Positions 8,990-38,851 of a stretch of DNA of 64,000 nt are shown in pieces (the stretch's first letter is position 1; each line of letters starts with the position of its first letter). The DNA comes from Botryllus schlosseri. Taxonomy: Eukaryota. Made by a program: the position numbers and the translations under genes. Location of the stretch: positions 36,024,001 through 36,088,000 of the forward strand of contig CM119371.1 of NCBI GenBank assembly GCA_051294905.1, written 5' to 3'. Below the pieces are notes generated by a model. It had not been told where the DNA came from. It did no database searches and was given only the letters and a program-made list of their open reading frames with translations.

Positions 8990-9281
8990 CAGTGGTTCCC
9001 AAACTGGGGAGCGCGCGCCCCTTGTGGGGAGGCGAAAGCATCTGAAAGGGAGGCGCTAAAAAGAATTTTTTTTCACGCTCCGCGCGATTTACCTCTATTT
9101 CATAGTTAGTGCTATGTGTATAGTCCGGAATTCATCTGATAGAATTATGTTATCAACAGCCATATCCTCCCATGCCATCAAACTAGCCGCTGGGATTTCT
9201 AGCATTCTGGATGCATTTCGTGATATGACAATTTTTCAGTATCATAAAGGGGTGTGTGTCTAAAAAATTTGAGAACCACTG
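8990..9281. mobile_element. hAT Charlie-like MITE
   Basis: cagtggttcccaaac...gagaaccactg; TSD-like gcttaggg/gcctaagg; family members at 34950-35266 and about 56291-56606; absent from paralog near 18210. Confidence 0.8.
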
Positions 9282-15972: not shown

Positions 15973-17563
15973 CAGAGGTGGTCAGTAACGAAGTACTTCT
16001 ACTTTTTCGAAGTACTCAAGTAGTTTTCTTTTACTTCTGGTAGTTACTCAAGTAGACCTGATTTTCTACTTGATCTTCTACTTCTACTTCGTAATATTTT
16101 GTGATCTACTTACTTACTTTTCGCTATTTTCAGTTTGTCAAGTTGAAGTAGTTCAATTTTCCAATCAGGAAGATAGCCTGAGGATTTTTGTAGCTGTTTT
16201 CACGGCGCATCAACATTTAATTTTCGTCATCAGAATTTTCGTCGCACTTAGCGTGCAGTGCTAGATACGGAGTAACCAATATGATTTCACGAAATATCGG
16301 TGAATATAATTTAGATAGAAGGTTGGCGTGGTTCCGTTCAGACCACATTGTCGCCCCTCGTCCATATCAAATAATTCATCACAGTATATAACGTTTGAAA
16401 CTGATGTTTCGCAATCTAGCATTTACTTGTCATATCGTAATCCAGCATGACCATGGCATGTCCAAACCTGGAAAAGTGGACTCTGACTCTTTTTAGTTTA
16501 ATAGCTGTTTTATCATACCACCTTTGAAACTTTCTGGACTAAAAACATGAAATACATGTTCTGCTTTTAGAAGTAGTATTTATATTTCACTTTCAATTCC
16601 CAATATCATATACTTTGAGATATAATTATTATCAGTTCTTTTGTCTGGATATGTTGAAGTATAAAAGCAAGTGTAGCAATGCCTTTAATTTCCGGGAATA
16701 AAGCTACACAATATGACATTTTTACGGCCCACCATATTTTTATTAACGTTTACTAATCGCGCAAAGTGTTTACACCGTATCCTATACAACTTCTCCGTAT
16801 TGCTCTTCGACTAAACTACGACCCTTATAATATGGGGAATGGCGCCATACCATGCTGTTTTCTAAAACGTGCTGTTCGAGAAAACATAGGATTAGCATCG
16901 CATTTCCATATCAATACTATCATTTTCATCCCATGATGTGGACGAATGCTTATGCTAGCGAAAATTGGATACCTGCTGGTATGCATCAATATGAATCAAG
17001 CTCGTCACCTATCGCATAGCTCAATTTGCACATTTTTACAGTCCATGTGAACGAATTAGGATCGTTTTTATAACTACTTACTTACTTGAGTACTTTTAAA
17101 GTCAGTCAATTCTACTTCTACTTCAAGTAGTTTTAGGTTGCTTATGGAAGAAGTACTTCTACTCGTACTTGAGTAAATTTTTTCGTCGCTACTTCTACTT
17201 CTAATTCTACTTGATCATATTCACTTGGCAGATCTCATTTTCATGTACGTTTATTAAACTTGATTTCGTCAGCTGCTGAGCGTGACACACGCTCAGCAGC
17301 TGACGAAATCAAGTTTAATAAACGTACATGAAAATGAGATCTGCCAAGTGAATATGATAAAGTAGAATTAGAAGTAGAAGTAGCAGCAGAGATTTACAAG
17401 TAGGTAAGTAAGTACTCTCGGCTTAGTTTTGCGTAAAACCTGAAGCTGTCGAGTAGAAGTCGAATTAGTGTAGGATATTAATTGCTTTGAGAAAGTAGAC
17501 GAGTCGGCAAAATCTACTTCAAATACGTCGAAAGTAGAAGTAATTCATTCCTGACCACCTCTG
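15973..17563. mobile_element. AGTAGAAGTA MITE, rearranged, containing a long hairpin
   Basis: cagaggtggtcag (15973) ... ctgaccacctctg (17563); tacttctac/gtagaagta arrays. Confidence 0.7.
17188..17384. repeat. Near-perfect hairpin: 97-bp arms, 3-nt loop
   Basis: 17188-17284 is the reverse complement of 17288-17384 with one visible mismatch; loop aca. Confidence 0.95.
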
Positions 17564-18308
17564 ATCACAATGCTTACGAAGATACTTATGATAAGGAATC
17601 TCTAGATCATGTTTATCTGGGCTCCTCATCGCCGATCCCGCTGTAATGCAGCGCATTGAAAAGCTCAGACGAAGAGAGAGCCGAACTCTTGAAAGATGGC
17701 AGCTAAAGATCGCGTTCAAGGAGCAAAAGCACAAAGACATCTGACATTTATGAAATTCATGTTCTGGGCGCAAATGACTATAATAGCGATAAGCGCCAAT
17801 GATGTAATAAAAACAAACAAACAAACAATAAAGACAAAATAAATTCGGAGGATGTTCAACTGGTATCGTTTTCCTTGTAGTTCCAAAAATATTCTGCTCA
17901 TATTCGCTCACATTCAGCGTTCTGCTCGTATGCAGCGGTAAGATAGATCCTATCGTCAATGCCAGAAATAGAGAATTGATGAGTTGGTTAGCATATCCAA
18001 TGTAAATAAAAACCAGAATTTAAAAGAAATATGGTCCTTTCTAGGATTAGTCGGCTTCTATATAGGATTACTATAGCTGGCACGGCTTTGGCGGTGATAA
18101 TAGCATTCCGGGGAAAAAGAATTAGCTGATACGAATGTACAGTAATGGGAATGTTGCCTTGTCGGGCAATGGCCGATACACCGCCAAGACCGAGTGGCGT
18201 AGAAAACACATCGTGGCTTCTCCACAATATCAAGCTTTACGAGGAGATAGTTTCCCAGCAATTATCGAGTCTAGTTAACCCAAATATCGATTCTGCCTTG
18301 CCCTAGAC

Positions 18309-18486
18309 CAGTGGTTCTTAACCTTGTCTCCAGCGCCCCCCAGGGGTCGATTTGTATTTTGAAGGGGGAGGAAACGCTGAGGGGGCGAAATGGGGGGGGG
18401 CGTTTTGATCAGGGGGCTGTATGGGTGGGCTGAAAAAATATTGCCTCACAGTAGATGGTGTAGTAAGGACATATGATTATATAGTG
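18309..18486. mobile_element. Left part of a hAT MITE split by the inversion
   Basis: Starts cagtggttcttaacctt, preceded by ccctagac; the matching terminus at 32065 is preceded by gtctaggg (reverse complement of ccctagac). Confidence 0.8.
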
Positions 18487-20166
18487 CAGTGGTTCCCAAC
18501 CGGTGTGCCGCGGCACACTAGTGTGCCAATTGGACTGCTCAGGTGTGCCGCGAGCAAATGCGGTAAACTGGGTCGAAGTATAACAAAAATCTAAACTTTG
18601 AGTGTGTCATTGTTGGATTTTCTATTGAATTCACTATATCAAGACACGCGATGTACAATCCGATGCAGTGAACAGATACAAGGATATCGCGACGGCCATA
18701 GTAACGTTATCTCAATCAGGCATCCCATCAGGTCATGGATTGGGTCTTTTTCTGGCTTTTTATTGTAAAGACGCTCTGAGCACAGCAACGTATAGGGTCG
18801 GAGAATATCATAAATCTGCGACGCTTCGTAACTTGCTACTGCACTGCCGTGAATGAAACTGGGGTCTCCACCGTCAATGGGTGTGATACGCTAGTTTGCC
18901 CACATATAGTAGCATTTAGGACGGTGATAGATAGATAACTAGACTCGGGCTATTAGACCGTGATGCTGAGGTGTGGCCGAAGGTGACCTTTTACTTGTCA
19001 CCCCATCACAACCGGAGGCAGAACAGGGACGTGACGTAGTTGATGACCTTTTTCTGTTTTTATTTGTAGTCGTATTCTTGCCATGTCTTCGTTATCGATG
19101 ATAATTTTATACCATGCCGATATAACATATTTTGATTCCTGAGATGCCAACTTATAGCACGGTCCACTTTTTGTAAGATACTGCTTTTGCAGATCCGAAG
19201 ACGAGTAGGAGCCAATATAAACCTCCAACACCTAGGAAGGCATTCCCACCATCGAGAAATGTATAGGCTACTCATTTGGAAGTGATGTTCACGTTTACAA
19301 ATTAGAATTGCCGACAGAACCATTCACATTGCGATTGTTAGGTAGCGTGCCAGCATTGCAGGTAAAATCTAGGCTCAGGGCGCAACGTAATGTTGCAGGC
19401 GACAAATTTGAGAATTGAGAAGTAATGTTGATCAAATTATATCAGTTAACAAATTTCACCGGTCCTGAGGTTTATCATCCCGGTTTGTTGGAACTGCAAT
19501 TGAACAGCAGCTGGCTGCCAGTACGACTCTTGACTGAGGTATTGCTATCCTCTCAGAAGCTATTACACGATCTGCATGGAAACGCGTTTGGCTTCCAAGT
19601 ATAGACACCTCTATACGCGTCTGTATTTGTTGACGATCGCGATCGGACTCTTCCATGCGACGGTTAATTACATCGGCAACGAGGTAGTGTGCAGACTTTG
19701 TTGTCAAGCCAATCTTATGAAATTAACCTCAGCCTGAAGTTTGAACGAGATCTCAGCAAGCAAGTTATGTGGCAACAGAGGTAATGGTTGATAATTCAAA
19801 ACCTCACACGGACTGAGAGAAAGTCCGTATTCCTGCCTGCAATAAAATTGTAAAAAAAAAGAATTGAAAACGATCCCCATGTCAAATTATACCATTCGTA
19901 GACGTATTTGTGAAATGTCCACAGAGATAAAAGAAAACTTAATTTCTTCTTTGAAGCAGCGAAAAGCCTACTTGAGAGCACCGAAAAGGCAGAAGTTGGC
20001 TACTTCCTCAGTGACCACCTATATAAGACTGTGGTTGCTGCTAACGCATTCTGGTAGTTTGCTTTTGCCGTAAGCCAAAAGAGTTCAAAACCACTGTGCT
20101 AGTGTGCCGCGAAATCTTTTTCATTTTCAAAGTGTGCCGCAAGGTCAAAAAGGTTGGGAACCACTG
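18487..20166 (+). mobile_element. hAT Charlie-like non-autonomous element, copy A (1680 bp)
   Basis: cagtggttcccaacc...ggttgggaaccactg; gtgtgccgc subterminal motifs; short Buster-like peptide KTIPMSNYTIRRRICEMSTEIKENL; near-identical inverted copy at 33033-33944. Confidence 0.9.
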
Positions 20167-21178
20167 GGTTAAAGTAACACTGGTCTAATGGTCTGATAAA
20201 AATATGCCTTCGCTCTGCAGCTACGTAACGACCCGGGGATAAAGGTATATTTGCGGGTCGCGTGCTAATATTTATTATTCAATAAAAAAAGTTGTTCCCA
20301 TTGAAATAGATTTAGGGTACGACTTAAATCCTAATATCATGTACGCCATCAATCATATCGCCTAGGCTTGGAGCAGTGGTTTCCAACCTTTTTTGTTGTC
20401 GGAGCCGCATTTCAAATTTCATAGTACGTGTAGAGCCGATCGAATACACTCCTTAGGTATAACAAAACTTTTAAAGCATGAAAGTACGTACCAACGAATA
20501 TAGCAACATTAACATTAGAAAAATACACAAATTAATTTAATGTCCAACTTGGCATTGGCTTTGAGCTTCAAGAAGTGTGTCAAAGCGATGCGTAATTGCA
20601 GAGATGTACGCAGTAGCTGCCTGAGCTGGTCATCGGCCAATCAATTGCGATATTGATTTTCGATTCTGACCATTTGGCTGAAAAGTGCTTCACATGCATA
20701 AAAGTTTATCTAAATAGAGAATCGTTTTTCTGGTCATTGGTTATCAAGTTAAGATACTTTCCCTCTGAAACTTGGCTCCAATATTCAAGTAAGTCTTCAG
20801 TTTTAAATGATTTCTTGAGCTCGATATCCCACTGAATGTATAGCAACTCAAGTTGATAATTTCTAGGGGCAGTGGACACATTAACTACAATAGGATTTGA
20901 ACACCTTTTCATCGTGGGTGAAAAGCATTCATACCGTCAACGCGGCGATTGAACTCATCAGTAAAGGTACTAATAAGCCTGTTGTGTGCATCAAATGATC
21001 CATTGGTTTGATGGTCAGATACTGTTGGGAAATGTCTTGTAACACCACTTGCACTTAATTCTGGTGGTGAGCTGACCGAAATTTGAATGCCAATATGAAC
21101 CCATATGAGTGTGAGTATACTTTTTGGCATGAGTTGAGTAACGAGATCGTCGCTGAGTAAAGAATCGCTACTCGGAAG

Positions 21179-22601
21179 CAGAGTTGGATCAATTACATTA
21201 TTTCAGTTCGATTACAATTACAATTACAATTACTTTCATGCATGTCTCAATTACATTACAATTAAAATTTCTCCATGCTAAATATATCAAATTACAATTA
21301 CAATTACAATTACTCCTTGCATGCTTCAATTACATGTAATTGAATATTCATAAATTCAACCGTGCTCCTTGACAACCGTAGCGTCGTAATTAACAACAAT
21401 TCAAGTATTCATGTTTCATTCATGATACGCAAATACCCGTTAATTAATAAAAAGAAAAAACGTTTTCGAACTATTCCAGTATGCAGTATGTCGTTGAAAA
21501 AAGTATTATAATATATGCACGTGTTGGATTTGCGTATATAGTATATAATTAAAAAAATTATATTATTTTTATCGAGGGACGTAGGAATTAGGATGAGGAG
21601 TAAAATCAAAACCGTTCTTTGTCAGATAAGACGTTATATAATATCCAGTGGTCTGGTTAGTTAGCCAGACGATGTAACGATGCAGCATCGTGATCTGAAA
21701 TCGTATTGTAGATTGCCAACCCACGGATAGATGCGCAAGATGTGAGTCACGGATGAAGGCACCGACAAACGTACTGCAGAGCCGGCTAAAAGCAGCAAAC
21801 TTTGTAGTCCTAGAGAGCTGGCGATCTAAGCGTCCAAATTTCATGCATTTGGTCTTTATCGTAAGCTATTGATGCACTAATTCCGAAAATACAAATTAAA
21901 ATCTCGTCAGGGCAATGTAACTGCTCCAAAATAGCCGTTTAAGGCCGACTGTTCTGAAAAGTGAGAACGCCGCAGCAGCATGACCACAACAATGACCAAT
22001 TACGCCCAGCGATTGCTCAGAACAATGCCGATTCCCAGACTTTCCACGACTATTTTGGGATGGTACCATTGCCTGGAAATATACTTTTATTGCGGAATCA
22101 GTGCGACACTAGCTTTCGATTACGACCATACATATCAAATTTCGACGCTTGGATCGCCAGCTATGGGACTATCAATTCTGCTGCTTTTAGCCGGCTCAGC
22201 AGTTCGCTTCTCGGCGTATTCAATCGTGAGTCACGTGTTGCGAATCCATCCGTTGGTTAGTTAATTGTATACAATGGCAGCCGAGGCCAGCATAGCGGTC
22301 AAAATGAAAAACTTCGCCCGCAAGGGCGCAGTCAAGGGCTTCCGCGAATGGACCCACCAAATTCCTTGTCGACATTTAAAGAGAATGCATTATAAGTCAA
22401 TTATTTTATGTTGTGCCTGTCAGGTCTCAATAGCAATTTATTGAAATAAAATTGTAATTGAGCAAAATTTTTGTCAACTTACAATTACAATTACAATTAC
22501 ACAAAATAAAATTGCTTCAATTACAATTACATTACAATTACATTGAAAAATGTAATTAATTACATTCAGCTCAATTACAAATTACAATTGATCCAACTCT
22601 G
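21179..22601. mobile_element. hAT MITE with CAATTA subterminal arrays
   Basis: TIR cagagttggatcaatt / aattgatccaactctg; TSD ctcggaag/ctcggcag. Confidence 0.85.
21715..22260. mobile_element. Imperfect palindromic element nested in the CAATTA MITE
   Basis: agccggctaaaagcagc (about 21780) vs gctgcttttagccggct (about 22180) with inverted flanks; related pieces at about 52250-52600 and 62010-62075. Confidence 0.6.
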
Positions 22602-24019
22602 CTCGGCAGCATATGAATTGGTCTCCATCTCTAATTATAAACCCCAGACTCAAAGCTATGCAAGGGTAAGATTTTAATATGAATTTCATCTTTTTGTTAT
22701 AAACTGATTTTTTAATATTGTTACGGGACTTTCAAACGTCAATGGGAGCCGCAAGAAGGGTAGCTGGGAGCCGCATGTGGCTCTCAGAACCGCGGTTGGA
22801 AATCACTGACTTAGAGTGTTTGTTGTGCATTTCAGAGTGTCATCACCATACTGCAGAATATTGGGGAAGTTATTATCGGCAACGCAGAGGTATACCGGGT
22901 GCTCCTATTATTTCACCATCTGGCTCTTATTCGTGGTTTCTAAATGATACGATTGCAATCGACTTCTATGTGCCCTGCATAGTTGGTGTTGACCTCTCAT
23001 ATTGGTGGAATGAGGGAATATGAGGGTATATTAGGGTGAAATGTGAATCCCGAATTTTGGATCAACCAGCTCAGCTTATGCAAAACTCCATCACATTTCA
23101 AAACGAAAATGATTCCCATAAAATGAAGATATCGGAAGGAGTAGAAACGACCAGTAGTAGTCTTTCTAGAGAGCATCTATCTCAGCCTGAAACATTGCTT
23201 TTTAACGTCTAATAACATGGGGACCACAACCCAAAATTCAATAACCGAATTTTTCGCTGATTCCCAAAACAGAAATATGCTAATAAATTTTCACTGCATG
23301 TGGTACACCTGGTTTGGTGTTTCGCACCTGAAAAGGGTAGCCTACATTAACCACAAGTTAAGAACTCCTGCCTCAAAATGGTTATGATTCTTGTGACCGG
23401 AAAGTTTTATAAAACGTTCCGCTTGGAACGTGAACATATTACTGTATAATGCAAGTCGCAAACTACTTCCGTTGGTGCCTTCCTGTCTGTGCGCATATGT
23501 CCGGACAATGTATTACCGGTGATATTAATCTTAATATGCCTGGTGTCATTGAAAAGAGAGCAATCATAAATATGTTACCATAGATCGAATCTCCTATCAT
23601 ATTTTATAATATCTTCTTCAATATATTTTTATTTTGATACAGTGTTAGATTTCACCAGGAGACCTTGTTCGCCAGAGTTGCTCAGGATAGAATTCGCCAT
23701 CAAGGGACTCAAACATACTTTCCAGTTTCATTACAAATGACTAAATTTGCAATTGCGCGGTAGCATACGGTCATGTTGTTTTTTTCAAGCCTGTTTCCTT
23801 GTTGAGCACTTAGCGGTAACGGAGGCATGTCATGTTTATCAGAAGCGTAGGAGTGTGATATAGATCAAGCATAATTTATGAAAATTCATGTAATTTCATA
23901 AAAAACCAACAGTCTAGAAACTTCCAAGGTTCGTTCGAGAATAAACGAACTTCTGAAATATCGAGGCCCGCACGACGGACATACGAACGTGAACATAACA
24001 TTTGGAACAACCAGTGACG

Positions 24020-24810
24020 AGCAAGATACGGCCCGCGAAGGGATTTGATCGGCCCGCAGAGAGTTCTTCACACTGAAAGGAAAATTATATTCTGGAAGTA
24101 TTGACAAATTTTATTCGTCGCAGAATGAATCCAAGTTTACCAACCTGAGAAAGATAGACATTAAAATTACCCTGTTCGGTTCTACATACATTTTCGACCA
24201 TGAGCTATAACGAAACAAGACTGTGTTCCAATTTAACTGTTGTTTGTGGCTTTAGTGGTGTTTGTCGACTACAATGGTCTAACACCAGGCCAATTTTTGT
24301 TCATTTTCATTCCGTAGATGCCGACTTGTAGCACGGCCCACTTCTAGGCTCTTAATAAGACACCGCTTACACGGATGAGATAACGAGGAGGATCCTAGAT
24401 AAACCTCTAACGCTGGGGTAGGAATTCTCGAATCGAACACGCTCGGACTCGAACCCTCAGCCCATTGGTGTTGCAGCTGTGGATTATACCACTGCGCTAT
24501 CTCGCCACCATTCACGTGCAATATTTACCAAGGGTTGCTACCCCTATGACATGTAGCCAGAGTTCAAAGAACTTATTGACAACTTTGACCGACCACAGAT
24601 GTCTGATTTGCTTCAACAGCTACTGTTAATAAATTCTTTAAATTATGTTTTAGTCTCTGTGCTTCAAACGTAAAATTTACATTAAATACGATTGTTTCCT
24701 TGTTTGGTGGATAAATACGCGATTATTGTATACATTCTGTAATCCGGCCCACCAATTACTTCATTTACCGAAATCCCGTCCGCCGACCAGGAGAAGTTGC
24801 CCGCTCCTGC
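24020..24810. mobile_element. hAT Charlie-like MITE (CGGCCCG motifs) containing a SINE
   Basis: cggcccgc motifs, transposase-like fragment near 24140-24200, end gagaagttgcccgctcctg; related copy at about 54555-54998. Confidence 0.6.
24240..24510 (-). mobile_element. tRNA-derived SINE
   Basis: Minus-strand head ggtggcgagatagcgcagtggta...ggttcgagtcc (A/B-box like); body and tail shared with 58540-58745, 60295-60545 and part of 19100-19260. Confidence 0.7.
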
Positions 24811-24967
24811 TTCTGTTTATTGTTTGATAGCAACAGAGGATTAGCCAGATTATCACCTGGACCAGGGGCGAGCGACTTCTGCAGTCGGCGGGCCGGATAT
24901 GGGAAAATGAAGTACTTGGCGGGCCGGATTCCTAAATCGACACATAAAACGCGTATTTATCCATCTA

Positions 24968-25260
24968 TAGGGGAAGCGAGTGGCGCAGTTGGTCACGACA
25001 CCAATGGGAGTGGTTCGAATCCCGGTTTGGACCAACTTTAGCGTGTCGGAGGTTATACGGGCTCCTCAATGCCGACCTCATTGCTGTTGCAGTGACTTTA
25101 AAAGTCGGCAGCAAAGGAACGAAGATGAAGCGAGCGTGGCGGCTGCATGAGAGAGTGGTAGAACATTAAAGACCCGAAAAATGCCATTCATTGTACTATG
25201 CGAAAACGTGTAAAGCCTTAAACTGGCTAAAAGCACCACTGTTGTGTCTAATAATAATAA
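24968..25260 (+). mobile_element. tRNA-derived SINE (second subfamily) with (TAA)n tail
   Basis: gtggcgcagttggt (A box), ggttcgaatccc (B box), ends taataataataa. Confidence 0.6.
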
Positions 25261-26635
25261 TCAATCAATGGGAATAATCGTATATAATGTAAACTTCAAA
25301 TTTGAAGCATGGAGTCCAAAACAGTATTCAATGAATTTATTACCGTAATGTACTTCAATAGCTGTTGAAGACATCTGTGGTTGATCAAAGTCGTGAACAG
25401 GTTCTTTGAACTCTAGCTGCATGTAGGCACAAAGAAAACAAAGAAATAAAGAATAATTATTAATTACCAATCACTATTATTTGTGTCCGAAAAAAAGGAA
25501 GAATAAACTACAGTCACAATGATTTGACGTTGTAAGCAGGTAGTGAACAATTGCGGCAGACTGTGACCGCGGGTCATATTATCATGTAAGACCGAAAAGT
25601 GGGTTTAGATTTGTTTCAAATTCACCAAGATATCAATTCATTAGGTTTGAGTTCATGCGGAAATGCCGGTAATGCAAGACTTCTCGTGTTGACGAACTCG
25701 TGCATAAGATCCACCCTCGCACGCTATATACACACACGCACGCTAAAGAATAATGTAGTAGTAGTAAGCGAGTAGTGGGGGACTACGGCAGACTATGGCC
25801 GCGGGCAACATAATCGTGTACGACCAGAAACTGACAGCGGGCCGCTAAAAATCACGTCGCGGGTCGCATGCTGCCCGTCCCCGACCTGGACTATTCGATC
25901 ATCTGCACCGTGGAATTAGTCTTGCGATTACAGCCCTGACTCGGCTATCATTCATATAAGCCGACTTACGCCAGAGTCTTTTTAGTTTAGTCTTTGGTTA
26001 CATTGGTTCTGCTCATATTCTTCCATTTTCTGACGTTGACAATAGGATCTACGTTACCGCTGCATATAAGCAGGTGTTACAAGCATTTCAGAACTACCTC
26101 GGCAGTTACAATGAAACCGTGCGTGATATGGCAAACAGCTGAGATCTTTCAAATGCAGTCAATGTATAGATACAGAATGATCACAAATCTTGTGAATATT
26201 CCATATAGAGCTATCATAACTTCCTGCGTCCCATCGTACAAGCACCATGTCGATTAAAATGTTGAATTTGATTTTTATATCGTGGTGTAAGTCCCATGTA
26301 GGTACTGTTTCGTGTAGAACGGGTGTATATTCACACCCATTTATAATGGGTGACACACAGGTGGTGATACACACCTTTTCGCTAATAGTTTACGCTACTT
26401 ATATCACCGCTGCGCTTTGCAAACAATGAGCAATACGGTTATTGCAAATGCCACGTGGTTAATGGAACAATAATACAATAGCCATTAAGTATACTAAAAT
26501 TATTATTGTAGTCGGAATGTAGCATATAGGCTCAGATTTCATAAAGATGATCTTCAAATGAATATAGTTATATAGGATCTCATCAACTTGTACTTTATAA
26601 AAATGCAAACATCTCCACAGTTCGGTTCGACGTCA

Positions 26636-26708
26636 GCCGCTGTAGCTCAGTGGTTACAGAACTGGTCTCGTAAGCCAGGAGTCGTGAATTCGAATCTCAC
26701 CGCTGGCT
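26636..26708 (+). tRNA. tRNA-Thr(CGT)-like gene, probably pseudogene
   Basis: 73 nt GCCGCTGTAGCTCAGTGGTTACAGAACTGGTCTCGTAAGCCAGGAGTCGTGAATTCGAATCTCACCGCTGGCT; anticodon stem CTGGT/GCCAG around CT-CGT-AA; mismatches in acceptor and D stems. Confidence 0.75.
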
Positions 26709-26712
26709 CGGT

Positions 26713-26762
26713 GCTGTCGTGGTCGAGAGTTTAAGGTGCACGTTCGAATCGTGCCGACAACG
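26713..26762 (+). pseudogene. tRNA-Ser pseudogene with internal deletion, 4 nt downstream of tRNA-Thr
   Basis: GCTGTCGTGGTCGAGAGTTTAAGG...GTTCGAATCGTGCCGACAACG then TTTTT; matches both ends of the 42030-42110 copy but lacks anticodon and variable arms. Confidence 0.75.
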
Positions 26763-26899
26763 TTTTTAAAACTTACATAACACATACGGATCACAGCGTC
26801 ACAGAGTTGGTCATGCGCCAGCGGATTTTGCTATGCCCTGCAGCAGTACGAGCAAAATGTTAAATAACAATATCAACAAACATTCATTGCCCTTTCTAA

Positions 26900-27284
26900 G
26901 AGGATTAATCCTCTTTTTTCAATAAGTTGAATTTGCCCGCAGAGGACGCCCACATGTCCTCTTTATGTGAATTTGTCCTCTTTTCTAGAAAAAGTGTTAT
27001 TAATCGATCAAATACTGGACTCCGACGCAGCGAACGCCAGAGTTGACAAGATAAAGAAAATCACGGCGCGGAGGGTATTTCGAGAGTAGCGAAGGCACAG
27101 ATGACATTTTTAGTGAGCAATTGGGTAAAGGTGGGTAATTCGGCAGTCGAGTCTACATGATGACTTTTGTTTTCACTAAAAGTCGAAAAATTATCAAAAT
27201 AGTCATTTTTCCTTTCCGGTAAAAGAGCTTTCGGATTTTTTGAAAAATGTCCCCTTTTTTGGATCTCAAAATATGGTAACCCTA
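26900..27284. mobile_element. hAT Blackjack-like MITE remnant
   Basis: End atatggtaacccta with gtcctc motifs; similar termini at about 47434 (cagggtcgccatatcgtcc) and 62083 (tagggttaccatacgtcc). Confidence 0.5.
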
Positions 27285-28716
27285 GTTTAGTTAAACCACA
27301 ATTACGATGCCCAGAATCATTCCAAGAGTGGGAATTGAAGGTGTATCAACTGTAATAAAGGCTAATTACTCTCTTGAACGGTTTATAATTGACACATATA
27401 AACATTCTTTGGAAATACTGGATGAACTCGTTATCAAATCAATTCGGTATAATATGCGGTAACGACACAGCATATTGCTACGGGCTGGGTACAACGATTC
27501 GAGTTTACTCGAATCTGAATCGAGTTCTAATTGTAATAAAACGACTCGCTTAGTGGGAAACGACTCTCTCGCGTTCAGAATTTATTGAAATAAAGCAAAT
27601 ATTAAAAACAAAATATATCTTAAAAATGATAGTTTCGACAGTCCCCAGCACCCACCTAGGTACCATTGAAACTTGATCGGTCGTATACCAGCACTAATGT
27701 TTTGTTGTCGAACGCTTTTAAAATCATTGTTTAGTGATAAAACATATTATTTTTTATTTTTCAGTCACCTACGATTGCCCCGTATAGTGTCAGTTCCGAA
27801 ATATATTCATGTTTATTTCACATCTGAATATATTATTTACTGATATTTTGATGTTTGCCAGACATTGCGACGACCTAAAATCTATTCACTACCTTTGGAA
27901 ATAGGATTTTTTTTGTTACATTGTTGGCACTATTTAGGTCATACATGTGGACGTTACAGATGTGATGTGGAATTATGATTTTTTACAAGGATGCGTTATC
28001 GATACGTATGAGAAACCATTAGAAAATGAATAGTGTAACTCGCTCTTGGAATATGATAGAAATGTATGATTTTTAGCATTTTATTAAAGAAGTCAACCTA
28101 ATCTCTTCGAATTGAATATTTGCTAGATGTAAACAGTGGGTGCGCTCGTAATTGGTGAAAGTTACATGATTGTTTGGTCTCAAATATAGCAGTCGGTGAT
28201 TTATTTATTTAGTACGTGATTCATGTCGTCTGTGTTGCAGAACTGGCCAGATGAGCTGAGCATGGTTTTATGGGTATACTGACCCCAGATAATGTGACGT
28301 TAGTATCATATTTCAATCGAGAGTGACAACGACGATGATATTGATGTAGCAGTGTAAGGTATTCCGAGAGAAATACACAACTTTCTGCAAGGCTATTTGT
28401 ATCTCCATGGTTTTGATTGTCGGTACGTTAGTTTCTAGAACTCTGTTCTTGGTGACTTTGTCCTTCAGAAGTTTTGTGTATTCAGTATTGCAGGTTACTG
28501 GTAATAGTACCATCCAAATATTCCACGATTGCCTTTTGATCGAGTAAGGGTTATTATGAACCATAGACATGTGATATTGTAAGTCATGGCATCGTCACGA
28601 TTCTCGTGGCTCTTGAAATTCAGCTTATATGTTTGGATGACATTTTCGATTACGTGTGAATACTTGGTATGACAGCCTTATATCAAGTAGGCCTATATAA
28701 ATTAGAACCGGTAATC

Positions 28717-30078
28717 ATGGTGCACGTCATACGTCCTAATGTGGAGAAACATGCAGTGAAGATGATGCAAGAATTGCATCAAATGAAACTAGAAAATGAT
28801 CATTGTGATTTCATAGTTCAAGTCGGAGAGGATGTCTATTACACTCACAAAAATGTATTGTCGGCTGGTTCAGATTATTTCAAAGCCATGTTGAAGCACG
28901 ACACGAAAGAGAGTCGCGAAGGAAAAGTCATTTTAAAAGACGTGGATTCGGAATGTGTGAAAAACTGTATTAATTTCATAGATTCGGGTAATTTTGAGAC
29001 TTTGGACGGAAAGATTAACGATCTTCTTCACGTAGCAAGCCTTATGCAGTTGGAGGATGTGAAACATGAAGTTTCTGATATTTTAGCGGAATCAATTAGT
29101 GTAGCGACTTATTTCTCTACGAGGAATGTTGCGGATATGTATGGGCTGAACACTGTTTCCGCGAAATGCGAAATATTCCTTCATGAAAATATCATGGAAA
29201 TTTCAAACCAACCTAAATTTGGAAATGTTGGAAAAAACCTAATTCTCACACTTTTGAAGTCCAGCCAATCCAAATTATGCGAAAAAGAAAAACTAATCCT
29301 ATCACTCAAGTGGATTGAGCATAATCGGCAGAAGAAATTGGATTTGCATGAATGTCTTGAAGTAATCGAAATTCACGAAATCTCTTCGGTATTTTTACAG
29401 CATCTGTTAGAAACACACCCAGTTATCAGCAACGACTTGGCGTTGTATAAATTTATAAATCAGCATCTTCTGAAAGCTGCGAAAGGACCGGACACCACCA
29501 AAACAGAAATTGTCGATGATGATTTATTACTTCTTTTTGACGATGGCACGAATTGTATCCGATCCTTCAATCCAATAACTGGGAAAGTAGAGAGGTTCCA
29601 TGAAGAAAAGTTCAAGCATTTGAAACGTTTCGGTACTATTGCTAACGACTCATACATTTATGTTTTATGTGATGATAAATCAGTCAACCGACTAAACTTT
29701 CAGATCAGAAATTCAAAATGGGAAAAGATGAAGGATATGATAAGCAACCACGGAAGCTATCCCCGCTCAGTTTCTTTTTCGGGGTCAATATTCGTTATCG
29801 GAGGAAGTTACCGGTGGACATCACGGGTTGTGGAAACATTTCACTCGTCTGCAAATCAATGGGTTCAACTTAAAAACAAACCGACAGCAATTGCAGATGC
29901 AAGTCTCGTATCATTGAATGATTCCATATATTGTATCGGAGGTATAGGAGAAGATGGTTTTACCGTTTCTTCATTCTGCAGATTCACTCCATCCTCACCA
30001 GAGTGGGTTGACCTCACACCAATGCACATTTGCGCTGAAAACTATTTACTTTGCGTTTCTTGTACTAGACATGATTAG
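28717..30078 (+). pseudogene. BTB-BACK-Kelch copy 2, 3'-truncated (open frame, last ~106 residues missing)
   Basis: Homologous ATG at 28717 (MVHVIRPNVEKH); similarity ends at EWVDLTPM (about 30024), then HICAENYLLCVSCTRHD-stop; downstream-flank homology resumes at about 30098. Confidence 0.85.
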
Positions 30079-30204
30079 CTATCTATATACACCCCTTTAC
30101 TACCACGCCTAATTCAAGCAATGATATTTTGTCTTACCCATCCAACTTCACTTGAAGAATGAATCAAACTTGATTTGCAAGTCGTATTGACATTATATAT
30201 GGGG

Positions 30205-31115
30205 CAGTTGGATGACTCGAGTCACCTTTTTCGCATAACCTGACTTGACTCGAATCAATTTGTTAAAATGACTTGACTTGACTCGGCGTATCAGAAATGT
30301 GGAACGACTCGTGACTCGGAGCAAAATTCACGAGTCAATTTCGAGTCAACAAGCAGTCGATGTCGATAAAAATCATTTTATCTTGCAAATGTTTGGACTG
30401 TACGCGAAACGCTGGTGTAACCCGTGAGAGCGACCAATAATTCAATGATTGTGCGATTTACTGAGCCTCCATTGTTTTCTCACAAATAAAGTGATCGCAA
30501 ACGAGGTGATCGAAGCTTACAGCTTACGCTGTCGTAAATTAGTATAGTAAAGTAATTTATTAGCAAAATGTCTATTGCTGTTCTCTGTTCTTAACTTTAT
30601 TGAAATTGAATTCCATTCTAGTTTATATAGTCCTCAACTATTGGCGCAGGCTGGCATTGTATCATATCAATTTGTAAATGGGTAATGTGTCGCATCTTAT
30701 TAATTCGTTTCTCTATTCTCTATTTTGGCTGGTAATTATAATCTGAGACTATGCAATTACTGACGTAGTTTAGCATTTATACGTATATGTGAATGATAAA
30801 GCGCCTTCTTGCGTTTATATTAACTCTATATTCGTTCATAGGTCCAGAATCAATGACCACTCAATCTGTATTACAGACAGCCAGCAAAATGCAATGACAT
30901 AAGCTTGCCTCATGATTCGAAAATACAACTTGACTTGAATTGTGACTTGACTCGTGACTTGTCTTGGCATGACTCGAGTCACCTCTAAAAATCGAGTGAC
31001 TTGACTTGACTCAAGTCACCTTCGAAAATTGATTGACTTGAATTGACTCGAGTCAAAACGTGCAATGATTCGAAATTACTCGTGACTCGAAGGTAGTGTC
31101 TTGATCCCAACACTG
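30205..31115. mobile_element. hAT MITE with GACTCGAGTC/GACTT repeats
   Basis: Same family as 6195-6844; ends gatcccaacactg. Confidence 0.75.
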
Positions 31116-32064
31116 GCAATATGTCATCTCCTACCCCGTAAACACTTATTTACCAGTTTTACTGTGAATAAAGAATATGATTATTATATTAATTTATAGA
31201 GCGCCGAATATAGCAATATTTCATTACTACACTAGAGTGCTGTACACCAGAGGCACTAAAATATAAAAGTAAACGATATTCAGCAGGACGGAATTTCTAT
31301 ATCTAACCATAAGATTTTCTGTGTATACGCTACTGCACATGGCGTACGACTTCAACAACCAATTCTACTATTGATCACGCTTAATTACATGTGGCCACTG
31401 AGGGCCAAGACAGCCGTATCATCGCAAATCATATACATGAGTTGAGTGTAAGTCTTGACCTCCAGAGAGACCTGAGAATAGCTCAGGAAACCCCTATAAT
31501 GTGCCATTGAACATCGGTTGGGAACCACTGTTCTAGATACAACTTCTTCCAGATACATGGAATCTCAATGTAAGTGCCTGGTTTTGTCACAGCGCTGCAA
31601 TTGTTATAAGCAGTGCCGATTTTCGTTGTTACGGCTTATTTTGAAGGGCTCCAGCGCCTAGAATAGATTTCAATCTATATTTTTTGGAATCAGTGCTACT
31701 TATAGCTTACATAAAGATCAATTTTATCCATTTCTTTTATGAGTACTTGAGTAGTCACTCTAGTCATATTCTAGCTATTGATTAATAATATTTTTCTAAC
31801 ATGAAGGGTTCGATGTATGCGTAAATATGGCAATTGTGGGGTACGGTGCCTTCCAAAGGTTAAAAAAAATCTGGTCTAGTAGCCTAGTAAATATGACTCT
31901 GCCCGACAGCTACCTTACAATACACGCATCAAGTATATTGGTGGGTCGCTTGCAGTTATGTCGTTTCCTATGGCTATAACGCATTTACATAGGTATGGGG
32001 TAGCATATGATGTAATTCTGAATATCATGCACGCCATCAATCATATAGGCTCGTTGGTCTAGGG

Positions 32065-33032
32065 CAGTGGTTCTTAACCTTTATTTCTCCAGCGCCCCAT
32101 TTCAAAAATTGTCTGGGTCTGGCGCCCCCCATGTAAAAGACAGTAGTAAAAACAATGCGTAAGTGGTCGAAATCTGGTTCCGGGTTGGGACTTGACTATT
32201 AGACCACTCGACCAATTATAACGGCATGACTGCATGTGCTATTTTCGGGATCAAATCAAGGTTGTTACCAACCATTGGGTAAGGTCTACGGGCTCATAGC
32301 ATTTGGTTCGAGATAGATCTACACATCACGAATTCTCTTCTGCGACTGGTAATACGAGGAAGTTAATTGTATTGGGCTTTGCTTTATTGCTTTGTGTACC
32401 TACTAAATCAACTGAGAATCTGGTAGAGATTTGTTCACATTAAATTCAGTACTGCACCAAACTGTTAAAATTAACATGAATGGGGGTAACAACAATAATC
32501 ATTATCATCCTTTATGATACGATGAAGAAATATTCTGACTGGCATCACTCGGAAAATTTCACTGTTCAGTGCCTTTTCGATTTCGACACGCTTTGCACTG
32601 CAGGATACGATACCTCTAGTTCAAAACATTTTGTGAAAAATAACCCGGGCTATTAGAGCTATGGGTATTTTGTCGCCGTCATATTTCAGTTAATAGCTGT
32701 ACTATATCAGTGTAACCGTCGGTTTATTAATATTTTCATCCTTTCAAAACACCACAAAACTGCGATACAATGAAAAGATAGGAAGGTGTCGAGACGACTT
32801 GGGGTAGCTAGCGTGACGGAAGTGTTTTAACGGGAAATTGGCAATTCAAAAGTACGCCCAATTATTTTACATGAAATAAAATAAACCACTGCATTCACGG
32901 AAACATCGTCGGTGGATATTTCGGGATGAGCGCAACGAAAAATGTTGTTATTTGACAGATTCGTCGAGTTAGTTCGCAGTGACCATTGACAACTCAGGGA
33001 TAAATACCTAGAGAACTATTGTTCAATTATAT
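32065..33032. mobile_element. Other part of the hAT MITE split by the inversion
   Basis: cagtggttcttaacctt...ctccagcgcccc terminus matching 18309; reverse-complement TSD gtctaggg. Confidence 0.78.
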
Positions 33033-33944
33033 CAGTGGTTCCCAACCTTTTTGACCTTGCGGCACACTTTGAAAATGAAAAAGATTTCGCGGCACACTAG
33101 CACAGTGGTTTTGAACTCTTTTGGCTTACGGCAAAAGCAAACTACCAGAATGCGTTAGCAGCAACCACAGTCTTATATAGGTGGTCACTGACGAAGTAGC
33201 CAACTTCTGCCTTTTCGGTGCTCTCAAGTAGGCTTTTCGCTGCTTCAAAGAAGAAATTAAGTTTTCTTTTATCTCTGTGGACATTTCACAAATACGTCTA
33301 CGAATGGTATAATTTGACATGGGGATCGTTTTCAATTCTTTTTTTTTACAATTTTATTGCAGGCAGGAATACGGACTTTCTCTCAGTCCGTGTGAGGTTT
33401 TGAATTATCAACCATTACCTCTGTTGCCACATAACTTGCTTGCTGAGATCTCGTTCAAACCTCAGCATCACGGTCTAATAGCCCGAGTCTAGTTATCTAT
33501 CTATCACCGTCCTAAATGCTACTATATGTGGGCAAACTAGCGTATCACACCCATTGACGGTGGAGACCCCAGTTTCATTCACGGCAGTGCAGTAGCAAGT
33601 TACGAAGCGTCGCAGATTTATGATATTCTCCGACCCTATACGTTGCTGTGCTCAGAGCGTCTTTACAATAAAAAGCCAGAAAAAGACCCAATCCATGACC
33701 TGATGGGATGCCTGATTGAGATAACGTTACTATGGCCGTCGCGATATCCTTGTATCTGTTCACTGCATCGGATTGTACATCGCGTGTCTTGATATAGTAA
33801 ATTCAATAGAAAATCCAACAATGACACACTCAAAGTTTAGATTTTTGTTATACTTCGACCCAGTTTACCGCATTTGCTCGCGGCACACCTGAGCAGTCCA
33901 ATTGGCACACTAGTGTGCCGCGGCACACCGGTTGGGAACCACTG
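33033..33944 (-). mobile_element. hAT Charlie-like non-autonomous element, copy B (912 bp)
   Basis: Reverse complement of 18487-20166 minus 768 bp of internal sequence; the ORF track gives identical translations in both copies. Confidence 0.9.
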
Positions 33945-34949
33945 CTTTAACCTTTGGAAGGCACCGCGTAGGCCGCAATCACCATACCATCACATTCACC
34001 ATTCATCGAATCCTTTGCAGTTGGAAAATATTATTTACCTATAGCAGACTCCTCATGAAATGGATGAAATGAATCTTTTTGTAAGATATCTGTTATACTG
34101 ATTCCAAATATGCAAATCAAGTCAAAGTGCTGGAAACCCCTTCAAGTCAGTAGTAAAGACGAAAATTTGCATTTTTAGAACAACAGTAGCGCAATGACAA
34201 AACGAGGCATTGCAATTGAGTTGCCATTCATCTGAACGAAGTTACGTATAGACAAGTTCGTAATTGTTGTCCGGTGGAACACTAGGGTTTCTCTGAACCA
34301 ATATCAAGGGATCTCTGGAGGTAAAGAAACATACTTAACACAGGCATATGACATGCGATGATGCGGCCGTCTTGGCTATCATTGGTTACAGGTAAATAGC
34401 CATGAGTAGTAGTCGAATTGTCACTATTGTGGTGAAACGTCGTGTGCAGTAGAGTATACGCAGGAAAGGTTGAGTTTCGATATCGTAACCCAGTACTTCT
34501 GAAATGTCAATTCTATCTCCAATATTTATAAGCTCACTGGTAATTAGGAAATATGTTTTCACGCTGTTGCGTTTCGACCGCATTTCAGAACTGGTATCGT
34601 AACGGAACAGTAAAAGTAACGCTGATTCGTATAAATATTCCCTATCATGCTTTCTTTTTATGTGAAAAATAAATTTTATTGACCTTGTTCTTTTAGCAAT
34701 ATGTTTATAGACGGCTAATTTCTCGCGCCAGCAATCTAAATCAATGTTTAGATATGTAGATAGATCTAGATCAGGGGTGGGCAAACTACGGCCCGCGGGC
34801 TGCATGCGGCCCGCAACACCGTTCTGTGCGGCCCGCGAGAGTCCAAAGAAACTTTTCAAAAATATTGATGAAATGCGTACTAAGAGTCGAATTAATGCAG
34901 GGACTTGATTAACATGTTCTTAGTATATTTCACCATGATAATTCTAAGA

Positions 34950-35266
34950 CAGTGGTTCTCAAACTGGTGGGCGCGCCCCCTTGGTGGCGTGAAAGTATTT
35001 AAAGGGGGCGCGAAGCTGAGCTCAACTGAAAAATTTTTTCGCGCCTTGCGCGATTTACACCCAATTCACAGTTATTGCTCTGTATTTAGTCTGGATTTCA
35101 TATTTAAAAATCTCTCATCCACAGTCGTAACCTTCCATGCCATCAAACTACCCGTTAGGTTGGCTAGCATCTTGGTTGCGTTTTGCGATATGACGATAAG
35201 GGGGTGCTAAATCTTTCACCATCATAAGGGTGGAAGGGCGTGTCTTAAAAAGTTTGAGAATCTCTG
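34950..35266. mobile_element. Nested hAT MITE (family of 8990-9281)
   Basis: cagtggttctcaaact...agtttgagaatctctg; collinear with 8990-9281. Confidence 0.8.
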
Positions 35267-35289
35267 ATCTAAGGTAAACACGTAATATC

Positions 35290-36247
35290 TAGGGATGGTG
35301 TGAACCTCTGAAAGGTTCAGGTTCGTGTGAACGTGAACCTTTTTGAAAGGCTCTGTGTGAACACGAACGTGAACCTCATGACGTCACGTGATGTCATATT
35401 GCTAATTTTAACACCATATTTCAATTAGGTGATTGCCTATATTAATCTGCTGTACACGATACCGAGCGACGACTCGGGCCACATAATAGCTCAGTACTTA
35501 AGTATACATATTGACGTTTTAAACGTTGCCAAATGTATCAACTGAGGCAATCAAATGATATAAATAATAATCCCATAAAATCAGTATCTTGCGTCGCTTT
35601 GCCATATATTTCGACCTGATCGGACAATGTATTCGGCGTCTGAGTATTGCCACATGGATATTAAGCATAGTGTAAAATAAGTTTCTATACTTGCTACCGA
35701 TATTACCCCATTAACAAGTTATACAGCAGTATAGCCAACACCCCAGACGCACGGATTTGGTTTTTATGATACAGTATATACATATGTAGTCAAGATTGAC
35801 CCCGTACGCCTGCTATATTTTTACATCAGAAGACGATATCAATCTCATTGATTGGTTGAATTAGGATCATTTGCTGACAAAATACAGTGTATTTTGCTCT
35901 TGATGTCATGTGATTGCGGGTCAAGCTCACAGCACAGAGACACTAAATATGTACAAACGGAAAGCTGGGTATTTCGAGCAAACTTTTGTAACAATATTTT
36001 TTGAGATTGTCAAGGGCATACTCGTTTAGTGTAGAATGTTTATGAGGCCAGCTCCATGCATAAAGTGGCCCGCAGTTGTAACTCCATAAACTTAAACCAG
36101 AAATGTTATAATGAAGTGAAAATTGCAATATATGAAAAAGGTTCACAGTGCAGAACCTACCAAGGTTCTGTTGTGAACGTGAACCTCAAATTTTCCGAGG
36201 TTCACACACAGAACGCGAACGTGAACATCACGTTCACACCATCCCTA
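35290..36247. mobile_element. Nested hAT Ac-like MITE with GTGAAC repeats
   Basis: TIR tagggatggtgtgaac / gttcacaccatcccta; perfect TSD gtaatatc. Confidence 0.92.
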
Positions 36248-37222
36248 GTAATATCACAGCGGGATAGCTGCTACGAGATTGACATAATTTGGATCACGAG
36301 TCGGATTTCAGATTAACCACTCTATTTTTAATTATTTCAGTGATGTGATTATAAAACACGATTCGGGCGTGTCTTAGGTAGATTCGTTCTATGTATGCGT
36401 AGAATTGTGGTATTTATATTTTATCTACACATAGTAGAAGCGTGTTTGAAGCTAACATGGTTATGATGCTGTCAGCATTGTGTGTCCTGGAGCCGAACCA
36501 AAAGTGGAATTAGTAAATCTATGAACAGATCGCTGCTCACAGATTTAAATGTCAATCCCGTTCTAAGAATCGGGCCAACCGACTTTCATCTCTATATAGT
36601 TTTGACAAATTGGTTATTGAGGTCCGCCACCCTATGAAATCTCGCCACTATATGTTTCTGACGCGTGTACGATATCATCAAAGCAATCTTCGGCTTGTTT
36701 TAAATAAGCATATATATTATCTCCATGTCCTCGATATGTAATAAAATATCAATATTGCGTTTTGCTATATAATCCCAATTTTATATAGTGCGGCCCGCGA
36801 ATGGATTCAGATGTTGAATGCGGCCCGCGAGCTCAAAAGTTTGCCCACCCCTGATCTAGATAGATGTGTATTGTGGTCTATTTGTGTTATTAGGCGTCAA
36901 CGAAAATTTGGGTTTCTGTGAAGGCTTACAGATTAACGTACGTGTTTCCGGGTTATTAAAAGACAGGAGACACTGCTATATATACAATATAAATACAACA
37001 TTCCAATCAAGCTCGGTTTAGTCTTTATTTAAAGTTGGATGGGTAGGCCCATGTCAAAATATCATTACTACAGTACAAGAAACGGAAAATAAATTTGTAA
37101 AAATATTATAGTGATGATAGCAACTAAAATATGTACAATTTACACCTCAAATACAATAGTCAACGTTTGATGAAGCGTATGTGAGCGATGGAATTTGTTA
37201 TGGTATCGAAAACTTTTACAAT

Positions 37223-38851
37223 CTATATCTTCACCATAGCAGATTTGTAAATTTCAAAACATTGATCTGACGTTGGTCTCACTATAATCCATTTGTCATT
37301 TGATATGTCGTACTTTTCAAAGTCATTGGAGGTTTCGAAATCTGTTACCGTAAAAATCCAGTTGCCAACGTGATAAGCAGAAACCAAATTATGACGAGCA
37401 TTCATAGATGACAATGAAGTCCACTGAGCAGAGTTAACATCATAACATTCTACATTGTTAAGGTTCTTCCGTCTACACAGCCCACCGATCACAAATATCT
37501 TTTGTTCAACGGCAACAACACCACTATCACACACAGGATATCTCATTGGTTCGAGGTCAACCCACTCTGATGAGAATGGAGTGAATCTGCAGAATGAAGA
37601 AACGGTGACCTCATCTTCTCCTATACCTCCGATACAATAGATGGAATCAGTCAATGATACAAGACTTGCATATGCAATTGCTGTGGGTTTGTTTTTCAGT
37701 TGCAGCCATTGATTTGCTGAGGAGTGAAATGTTTCCACAGCACTTGACATCACCGGAAAACTTCCTCCGATAACGAATATAGACCCCGACAAGGAAGCTG
37801 AGCGGGGATATTCACCGTGGTCACAAATCATATCTTTCATTTTTTCCCATTTTGAATTTTTGATTTGAAAGTTTATTCGGTGGACTGATTTATCGATACA
37901 CAAAACATAAATGTATGAGTCGTTAGAAATCATACCGAAACGTGGCAAATGCTTGAACTTTTCCTCATTAAAGTGCTCTACTTTCTTAGCTATTGTATTG
38001 AAGGATCGGATACAGTCTTTCTCATTATCAAGAAGTAATATTATTTCATTCTCGTCAATTTCTTCTTTCGTTTTTTCTGGTCTTTTTGCAGCTTTCAGAA
38101 AATGTTTATTAATATATTTGTACAACTCGAAGTCGTTGCTTATAATTGGGTGCGTTTCCAACAGATGTTGCAAAAATATTGAGGATATTTGGTCATATTG
38201 GATTACTGCAAGACATTCATGCAAAAACCGTTTCTTCTTCCGATTATTCTCAATCCAATTGAGACATAGGATTAGTTTTTCTTTCTCGCATAATCTAAAT
38301 TTGCTCGACCTCAGAATTGTGAGGATTAGGTTTTTCCCAACATTCCCAAATTCTGGCTGGTTTGAGATTTCCATGATATTTTCATGAAAGAATATTTCGC
38401 ATTTTGCGAAAACAGTGTTCAGCCCATACATATCCGCAACATTCCTCATGGAGAAATAATTCGCTACAGTGATTGATTCCGCTAAAATATCAGAAACTGC
38501 ATGTTTCACATCTTCCAACTGCATAAAGATTGCTACATGTAGAAGATCGTTGATCTTTTCATCCGAAATCTCAAATTTACCCGAATATATGAAATCGATA
38601 CAGATTTTGACACATTCCGAATCAACGTCTTTGAAAGCGACTCTTCCTTCACGGCTTTCTTTCGTGTCGTTCTTCAACATGGCTTTGAAATAATCCGAAC
38701 CAGCCGACAATACGTTTTTGTGGGTGTAATAGACATCATCTCCGACTTGAACTATGAAATTACAATGATCATTTGCCTGTTTCATTAGGTGCAATTCTTC
38801 CATCATCCTCACTGCATGTTTCTCCACATTAGGACGTATGACGTGCACCAT
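37223..38851 (-). CDS. BTB-BACK-Kelch protein (KLHL-like), intronless, copy 3
   Basis: Uninterrupted ORF; homologous ATG at 38851 (542 aa); collinear with copy 1 to the terminal VKI-stop. Confidence 0.95.
   Translation of the reverse strand: MVHVIRPNVEKHAVRMMEELHLMKQANDHCNFIVQVGDDVYYTHKNVLSAGSDYFKAMLKNDTKESREGRVAFKDVDSECVKICIDFIYSGKFEISDEKINDLLHVAIFMQLEDVKHAVSDILAESITVANYFSMRNVADMYGLNTVFAKCEIFFHENIMEISNQPEFGNVGKNLILTILRSSKFRLCEKEKLILCLNWIENNRKKKRFLHECLAVIQYDQISSIFLQHLLETHPIISNDFELYKYINKHFLKAAKRPEKTKEEIDENEIILLLDNEKDCIRSFNTIAKKVEHFNEEKFKHLPRFGMISNDSYIYVLCIDKSVHRINFQIKNSKWEKMKDMICDHGEYPRSASLSGSIFVIGGSFPVMSSAVETFHSSANQWLQLKNKPTAIAYASLVSLTDSIYCIGGIGEDEVTVSSFCRFTPFSSEWVDLEPMRYPVCDSGVVAVEQKIFVIGGLCRRKNLNNVECYDVNSAQWTSLSSMNARHNLVSAYHVGNWIFTVTDFETSNDFEKYDISNDKWIIVRPTSDQCFEIYKSAMVKI

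Follow-up and report, generated by a model that had tools for sequence, protein, structure and literature searches.

A 12.9-kb inversion bounded by two near-identical hAT-type transposon copies within a Kelch gene cluster of Botryllus schlosseri

Inversions between oppositely oriented copies of a terminal inverted repeat (TIR) element, with target duplications exchanged between the breakpoints, have already been documented. The case described here belongs to the same class and was found in 64,000 nucleotides of the Botryllus schlosseri genome (assembly GCA_051294905.1, contig CM119371.1, positions 36,024,001 to 36,088,000), a stretch called the window below. It consists of an inverted segment lying between two oppositely oriented copies, A and B, of one non-autonomous hAT-type element, and it carries copy 2 of a cluster of four Kelch genes. 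An initial annotation had described a 13-kb inversion bounded by MITEs (miniature inverted-repeat transposable elements) which flips Kelch copy 2. The transposon boundaries and the flipped gene stand, while the segment measures 12,866 bp and MITEs are as a rule shorter than the 1.7 kb of A.

The sections of PMC3698922 on the BuT5 inversions 2s (Drosophila mojavensis) and 2x3 (D. uniseta) describe breakpoints that each carry a non-coding TIR element, the two copies oppositely oriented and their duplications of 8 or 9 bp exchanged; the present locus shares this layout, with one duplication exchanged exactly. BuT5 is affiliated with the P element and its inversions are fixed and of chromosome scale, whereas the present locus has hAT-type ends, a length of 12.9 kb and one imperfect duplication. 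The Galileo inversion 2z3 of Drosophila buzzatii, according to the breakpoint descriptions in PMC2775673, likewise shows opposite orientation, exchanged duplications and a single target copy in the non-inverted arrangement; here the single copy is also seen, but is read from paralogs. In Galileo the copies had diverged by about 7% and their chimeric make-up could be seen; this established recombination, the process favoured by the authors (PMC2775673). A and B are 0.2% apart, and chimerism is uninformative. A direct precedent is offered by the Ds pair at OsRLG5-161 in rice, also hAT elements, for which the relevant part of PMC3239180 reports an inverted local hop of 1.1 kb in a tandem gene cluster and inversion of the intervening DNA by recombination between the retained copies in 33 of 300 regenerants. 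That system was engineered, with induced transposase, tissue culture and a 1.1-kb interval, whereas ours is natural, animal and 12.9 kb long, with one copy deleted internally. In Atlantic cod, hAT-derived MITEs occur at animal inversion breakpoints and ectopic recombination was proposed, as outlined in PMC12368964, but those inversions are large-scale and involve tandem MITE accumulations, in contrast to the single copies and the split duplications resolved here to the nucleotide. The locus is an example, resolved to the base, of a small inversion made by resident transposon copies in a gene cluster that is expanding.

In this sequence the inversion is real, and the following features define it.

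20167 to 33032, unstranded: inverted segment, 12,866 bp, whose minus-strand Kelch-unit paralog blocks become plus on reversal
18487 to 20166, plus strand: copy A, 1,680 bp, hAT-type and non-autonomous, whose 15-bp TIRs match perfectly and whose subterminal GTGTGCCGCG motif is repeated
33033 to 33944, minus strand: copy B, 912 bp, inverted, without the 768-bp middle of A and with 2 substitutions relative to A
20167 to 20174, plus strand: inverted copy of the B target duplication, GGTTAAAG, 8/8 with 33945-33952
33945 to 33952, plus strand: outer copy of the B target duplication, CTTTAACC, reverse complement of 20167-20174
18301 to 18308, plus strand: left target duplication of the host element, CCCTAGAC, exact reverse complement of 32057-32064
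32057 to 32064, plus strand: right target duplication of the host element, inverted, GTCTAGGG, exact reverse complement of 18301-18308
18309 to 18486, plus strand: left piece of the host element, 178 bp, an older hAT-type element cut by breakpoint 1
32065 to 33032, minus strand: right piece of the host element, 968 bp, now inverted, which may hold a nested repeat

The coordinates and inverted orientation first proposed for A and B are correct, and the two copies have identical 15-bp TIRs. Their annotated near-identity applies to the shared parts and not to the 768-bp middle of A: B corresponds to the first 484 and last 428 bases of A, with one substitution in each part (2/912, or 0.2%; 95% interval 0.03-0.8%), and microhomology of 6/7 bases is found at its deletion junction. 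The 8-mer that follows A was said to be the reverse complement of the one that follows B; this match is exact (8/8), with a chance probability of about 2e-4 for GGTTAAAG and CTTTAACC when the central TA is taken as given. The older host element is indeed cut in two, as had been recognized from its duplications at 18301 and 32057. These two 8-mers match 8/8 with a chance probability of about 1e-4, the central TA again taken as given, and the host ends at 18309 and 32065 point in the same direction, with 30/34 columns matching over the TIR and subterminal region (32065-32098).

A and B agree with a non-autonomous hAT element in their 8-bp target duplication, their 15-bp TIRs and the absence of visible transposase coding capacity. 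No open reading frame (ORF) of 100 amino acids was found in A or B, and no Pfam family was detected in A in any of 6/6 frames at E<=0.05; likewise, Pfam gave nothing in 18/18 frames of A, the host right piece and the element at 20374-22808. A search of 16000-37000 against Rfam returned 2 matches, neither of them at a breakpoint. The CAGTGG ends and the TA-centred 8-mer are features typical of Charlie/Buster-type hAT elements.

The arrangement was then examined with the paralogous units of the cluster. The segment 20167-33032 was reversed by script, A, B and one target copy were removed, and the result was aligned.

8380 to 8672, plus strand: un-rearranged paralog across breakpoint 2, downstream of Kelch copy 1, 297 bp, 82.5%, E 1e-74 after reversal

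A paralog near 8420-8445 had been reported to read across the junction, and after reversal it does so as this single block. All Kelch-unit blocks formerly on the minus strand turn plus, and a second paralogous block crosses the restored B site (32106-31279, 855 columns, 67%). The target 8-mer of B is present in a single copy at both paralogous empty sites, and therefore there was no loss or gain at the B site; the single copy is read from these paralogs, no allele in the standard arrangement having been observed. Only after reversal does the stretch from about 6.0 to 10.2 kb, downstream of Kelch copy 1, become collinear with the sequence downstream of copy 3. Reversal also brings all four Kelch genes onto one strand, head-to-tail as annotated; in the assembled sequence copy 2 alone is plus-stranded, against minus for copies 1, 3 and 4. 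Since the paralogs are collinear only after reversal and the host element is split, the inverted arrangement is the derived one here. At the other breakpoint, the host-element site is crossed by no paralog (18000-18308 against the copy-1 unit scores 28, with a shuffle maximum of 39), so this breakpoint rests on the split host element.

Possible further traces of hAT activity were noticed in the paralogous units. The B target site lies inside an apparent decayed hAT end (20167-20182, minus strand; 8423-8438; about 31860-31880, minus strand), which starts with CAGTGT and is preceded by a TA-centred 8-mer at 2/3 sites. Being common to three Kelch units, this end predates the gene duplications. 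The copy-2 unit (32040-32064 versus 7400-7430 and 20350-20373) loses its homology to the other units about 13 bp short of the host element, near the site at which the 20374 element inserted in the copy-3 unit. One border of the duplicated unit may fall on a hAT target site, as in duplications made by alternative transposition, a process reportedly described in a published study.

Contigs from 4 of the 10 listed runs were aligned to 16500-36400. The variant table comprises the best-supported 40 of 909 rows and is not a random sample, and counts in three runs are minimum values. Of the 40 rows, 12 lie within A or B, and 7 of these, at 6 distinct sites, within the shared parts. At 6/6 of these sites A equals B, while 91-100% of the summed family depth has another letter in each of the 4 runs; at 18849/33582, 33566 and 33835 the share of non-majority letters is 0-3% in all four. 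Three pieces of run X5, which carries a different organism label, differ by 2-5% from A, and runs X5 and X6 hold small shares (0.07 and 0.06). A and B are thus apart from the bulk of the family yet 0.2% from each other, and the sister reading is therefore the simplest: judged from these tallies, they look like a parent and its recent local daughter and not like two independent insertions, although a small young subfamily sharing the 6 letters elsewhere would also fit. Ectopic recombination between two independent insertions of such a small, recently active subfamily is the textbook route, exemplified by the accounts of Galileo and BuT5 in PMC2775673 and PMC3698922, and close copies may exist, up to 9% of the family depth being without the majority letter at some of the 6 sites. 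It would require chance to have placed two insertions from a rare subfamily 13 kb from each other, and the non-majority share is 0-3% at the three sites named above in all four runs; we regard it as quite unlikely.

Short contigs cannot show the inversion, because each element end retains its own flank in either orientation. Among the contigs listed, none spans A, B or the whole stretch, and none of the 15 listed joints (of 2111) falls at a breakpoint. An exact contig joining 24 bases of the A right end to 20167-20563 was dismissed as evidence, since it falls under a rule against matches of <31 bases and the junction exists in either orientation. An assembly artefact, in which A and B would be genuinely inverted and the DNA between them flipped by the assembler, would agree with this lack of spanning contigs among those listed; but the repeats, whose longest common block is 484 bp, are short, and a 768-bp indel sets them apart; the window also lies at least 30 Mb into its piece, suggesting a long-read assembly. 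We hold such an artefact to be most improbable.

The 8 contig pieces listed for a second sample are 0.4-7.2% from the window, some of them possibly being paralogs or repeat copies. With A and B differing by 0.2%, the event probably postdates much of the allelic variation; the inversion is probably recent and may segregate as a polymorphism. At 26183-26571, two overlapping contigs of run X7 with similar depth are 0.4% and 7.2% from the window, which suggests very divergent alleles in one sample.

How the inversion arose was considered in the light of these data. The initial annotation had opposed ectopic recombination to aberrant transposition, and both stay the main candidates. We tentatively favour, at somewhat less than an even chance, a local hop with gap repair followed by ectopic recombination between the inverted sisters. 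In this account an old hAT copy, itself non-autonomous, would have resided within the older hAT element, beside Kelch copy 2. Transposase supplied from elsewhere would have moved it 13 kb along the chromosome, in opposite orientation, duplicating CTTTAACC, and the donor site would have retained a copy, most simply via aborted gap repair from the sister chromatid, which could also account for the 768-bp deletion with microhomology. A crossover between the inverted sisters would then have flipped the intervening DNA and, if located in the shared 5' 484 bp, would place the full-length form at the left breakpoint, as observed. The inversion itself, the exchange of the 8/8 duplication, the splitting of the host element and the near-identity of the copies are read directly; we infer the sister relationship, the order of events, the gap repair and the crossover. 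This account is favoured because excision with aborted gap repair gives both the second copy and the microhomology deletion, and because the same series of events was observed with Ds in rice. Microhomology is ascribed to abortive gap repair plus microhomology-mediated end joining in the portion of PMC3814204 that deals with it. The perfect duplication at the B site and the imperfect one at the A site are as expected if the B site is the new insertion.

Several points weigh against a hop followed by recombination. The chimerism test fails for sisters that differ at only 2 sites, and under the criterion set out in PMC2775673, in the part concerned with mechanism, hybrid element insertion is what identical copies indicate. 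The stretches of shared homology, 484 and 428 bp, are short, and the rice frequency comes from tissue culture and a 10-fold shorter distance (PMC3239180). The contig comparison was confined to the best-supported 40 of 909 rows, so that a small young subfamily with the same letters is possible. The 6/8 flank of A is left unexplained.

In the first of the transposition routes, a one-step hybrid element insertion, copy and inversion would be made together and the B middle lost later: after replication, transposase would pair a left end and a right end from different sister chromatids and insert them at CTTTAACC. Recombination and same-site hybrid element insertion yield the same exchanged duplications and differ in whether the copies are chimeric or identical, as the comparison of models in PMC2775673 has it. 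The route predicts identical flanking copies, with one new perfect exchanged duplication and one old one (PMC2775673); A and B differ at 2/912 positions and share 6 rare letters, and nothing was lost at the new site. The near-identity and the lossless new site are equally predicted by a local hop, the 768-bp deletion of B requires a separate later event whereas hop and gap repair give both, and the discussion of the natural case in PMC2775673 rejects this mechanism. We consider it rather unlikely. Our literature search for hybrid element insertion with inversion returned Galileo and plant Ac/Ds work, and was too narrow to deny a natural animal case in print.

The second duplication pair, between the A left flank and the B inner flank, matches at 6/8 in direct comparison, exactly as annotated, and two alternative 7/8 pairings exist; the split 8/8 host duplication independently fixes breakpoint 1 despite this imperfect flank.

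18479 to 18486, plus strand: 8-mer at the left end of A, ATATAGTG, 6/8 to 33025-33032 and 7/8 to 32700-32707, both as reverse complement
32700 to 33032, unstranded: 8-mer (32700-32707) that may be the true partner, after which come a TIR-like CAGTG (32708) and a 325-bp piece

The B-adjacent 8-mer had been put forward as the partner of the A left flank, and its 6/8 match is confirmed, but it has 7/8 rivals at 32700-32707, 325 bp away, and at 18471-18478, whose 7/8 match to the B inner flank would leave 8 extra bases beside A. The 32700 site is the only one of 211 CAG[TG]G sites in the window within 1 mismatch, and 1/5000 Markov simulations gave such a site, the search being post hoc. The 325-bp piece from 32708 may have travelled with copy A, or hosted it. 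The CAGTG at 32708 may be internal and not an end, because the first ~100 bp resemble a dispersed motif which is also found inside A. This motif, of about 95 bp, is weakly conserved and occurs in unrelated contexts at 32712-32809, 18606-18697, 52856-52949, 23076-23161 and 7054-7121 (nhmmer E 0.003-0.2). The depth bin 32436-33099 has about 10x the depth of its neighbouring bin in run X1, and more still in the other three runs, summed depth not being copy number; this gives a weak hint of an abundant repeat nested in the host right piece. Two further ideas were abandoned: a Helitron at 32708-33032, dropped by eye as having no fitting ends, and a hAT excision footprint as the source of the 6/8 flank, the changed bases being unlike the complement pattern of Ac footprints. 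BLAST and nhmmer over the window retrieved, as further copies of the host element, only its two ends and weak motif matches, and exact-motif scans for it gave 0 matches in metagenome, genome and viral contigs.

The 6/8 mismatch had also been taken as a pointer to aberrant transposition. Alone it is no argument for it: same-site hybrid element insertion keeps both duplications, and 6/8 duplications were seen in 2/4 element end pairs checked in the window. That the copies look like sisters is the better argument. Two changes in 8 have a probability of 0.01 at 2% divergence and of 0.06 at 5%, and the second duplication has possibly decayed by mutation. The mismatch would be explained without mutation by a reversed-ends transposition of two directly oriented sisters in the host element, in which the facing ends excise the DNA between them and insert at CTTTAACC, giving an inversion with a small deletion, the 6/8 flanks then being two different old target sites; both 8-mers do have the central TA typical of ends in the window. 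Inversion plus deletion is the outcome stated in the legend of Figure S1 D of PMC2775673. Against this, two unrelated TA-centred sites share 4 of the other 6 bases with a probability of 0.046, a prior hop within the host of about 1 kb is required, and the 7/8 site at 32700 is unaccounted for, which makes this route, in our estimation, decidedly improbable. All other histories, taken jointly, seem very improbable too.

A bolder combination would have the inversion made directly by hAT transposase, whether by same-site hybrid element insertion or by reversed ends, young enough to segregate, and involving a copy which had itself come in as a composite unit (A with the 325-bp piece ending at 32708). 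We consider this possible but doubtful. If true, it would be a natural animal case of inversion by aberrant hAT transposition, and would fit a genome where mispaired hAT ends routinely shuffle tandem gene clusters.

The window has a GC content of 40% and is eukaryotic DNA rich in repeats. Its Kelch cluster comprises four BTB-BACK-Kelch reading frames, all intronless.

10839 to 12464, minus strand: Kelch copy 1, 541 aa, outside the inversion
28717 to 30078, plus strand: Kelch copy 2, 453 aa, the flipped copy, a BTB-BACK-Kelch ORF without introns
37223 to 38851, minus strand: Kelch copy 3, 542 aa, whose downstream region is split by breakpoint 2
49511 to 51166, minus strand: Kelch copy 4, 551 aa

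With pairwise dS of 0.16-0.48 and amino-acid identity of 74-84%, the copies are, judging from their sequences, old paralogs. Homologues at E<=1e-30 numbered 4 among 5500 candidates, the sole named one being a Styela clava kelch-like protein with 27% identity. Copy 2 is truncated (453 aa versus 541-551 in copies 1, 3 and 4): a deletion of about 0.94 kb at the 3' end removes the last ~105 codons, with about 16 unrelated residues instead, and as the frame stops at 453 aa the propeller is incomplete. Around this deletion (30025-30100), some 65-75 bp between the aligned sides match neither cleanly. Relaxed selection on copy 2 was considered and found no support, its pairwise dN/dS (0.32-0.43) lying inside the range of the other pairs (0.27-0.47). 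Because the two breakpoints cut no reading frame, copy 2 retains 8.5 kb of upstream DNA inside the inverted segment and copy 2 is itself truncated, the functional stake of the inversion looks small. Breakpoint 2 lies 3.3 kb beyond the copy 3 stop codon. We infer that one inverted unit would hinder unequal crossover with its neighbours.

Other repeats were observed in the window. ORF fragments on the minus strand at 7657-8416, which contain a YADDL motif and look by eye like the truncated reverse transcriptase of a LINE, interrupt the Kelch copy-1 unit. A 2.4-kb hAT-type element at 20374-22808 has a 6/8 duplication and a paralogous empty site at about 7398-7405 with a single target copy; one of its frames contains FYACEALFS, which resembles a hAT C-terminal motif, Pfam giving no match. 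Complete hAT-type elements of 2,082 and 849 bp with perfect 8/8 duplications lie at 34772-36853 and 39911-40759, and a 292-bp one with a 6/8 duplication at 8990-9281. Foldback (self-complementary) stretches of 630, 197 and 256 bp occur at 2209-2838, 17188-17384 and 24708-24963, respectively, the second giving a sub-threshold Rfam match to a miRNA hairpin which is probably only a palindrome. Inside the inverted segment, 26636-26708 scores above the Rfam gathering threshold as tRNA-like, and may be the head of a SINE or a tRNA pseudogene.

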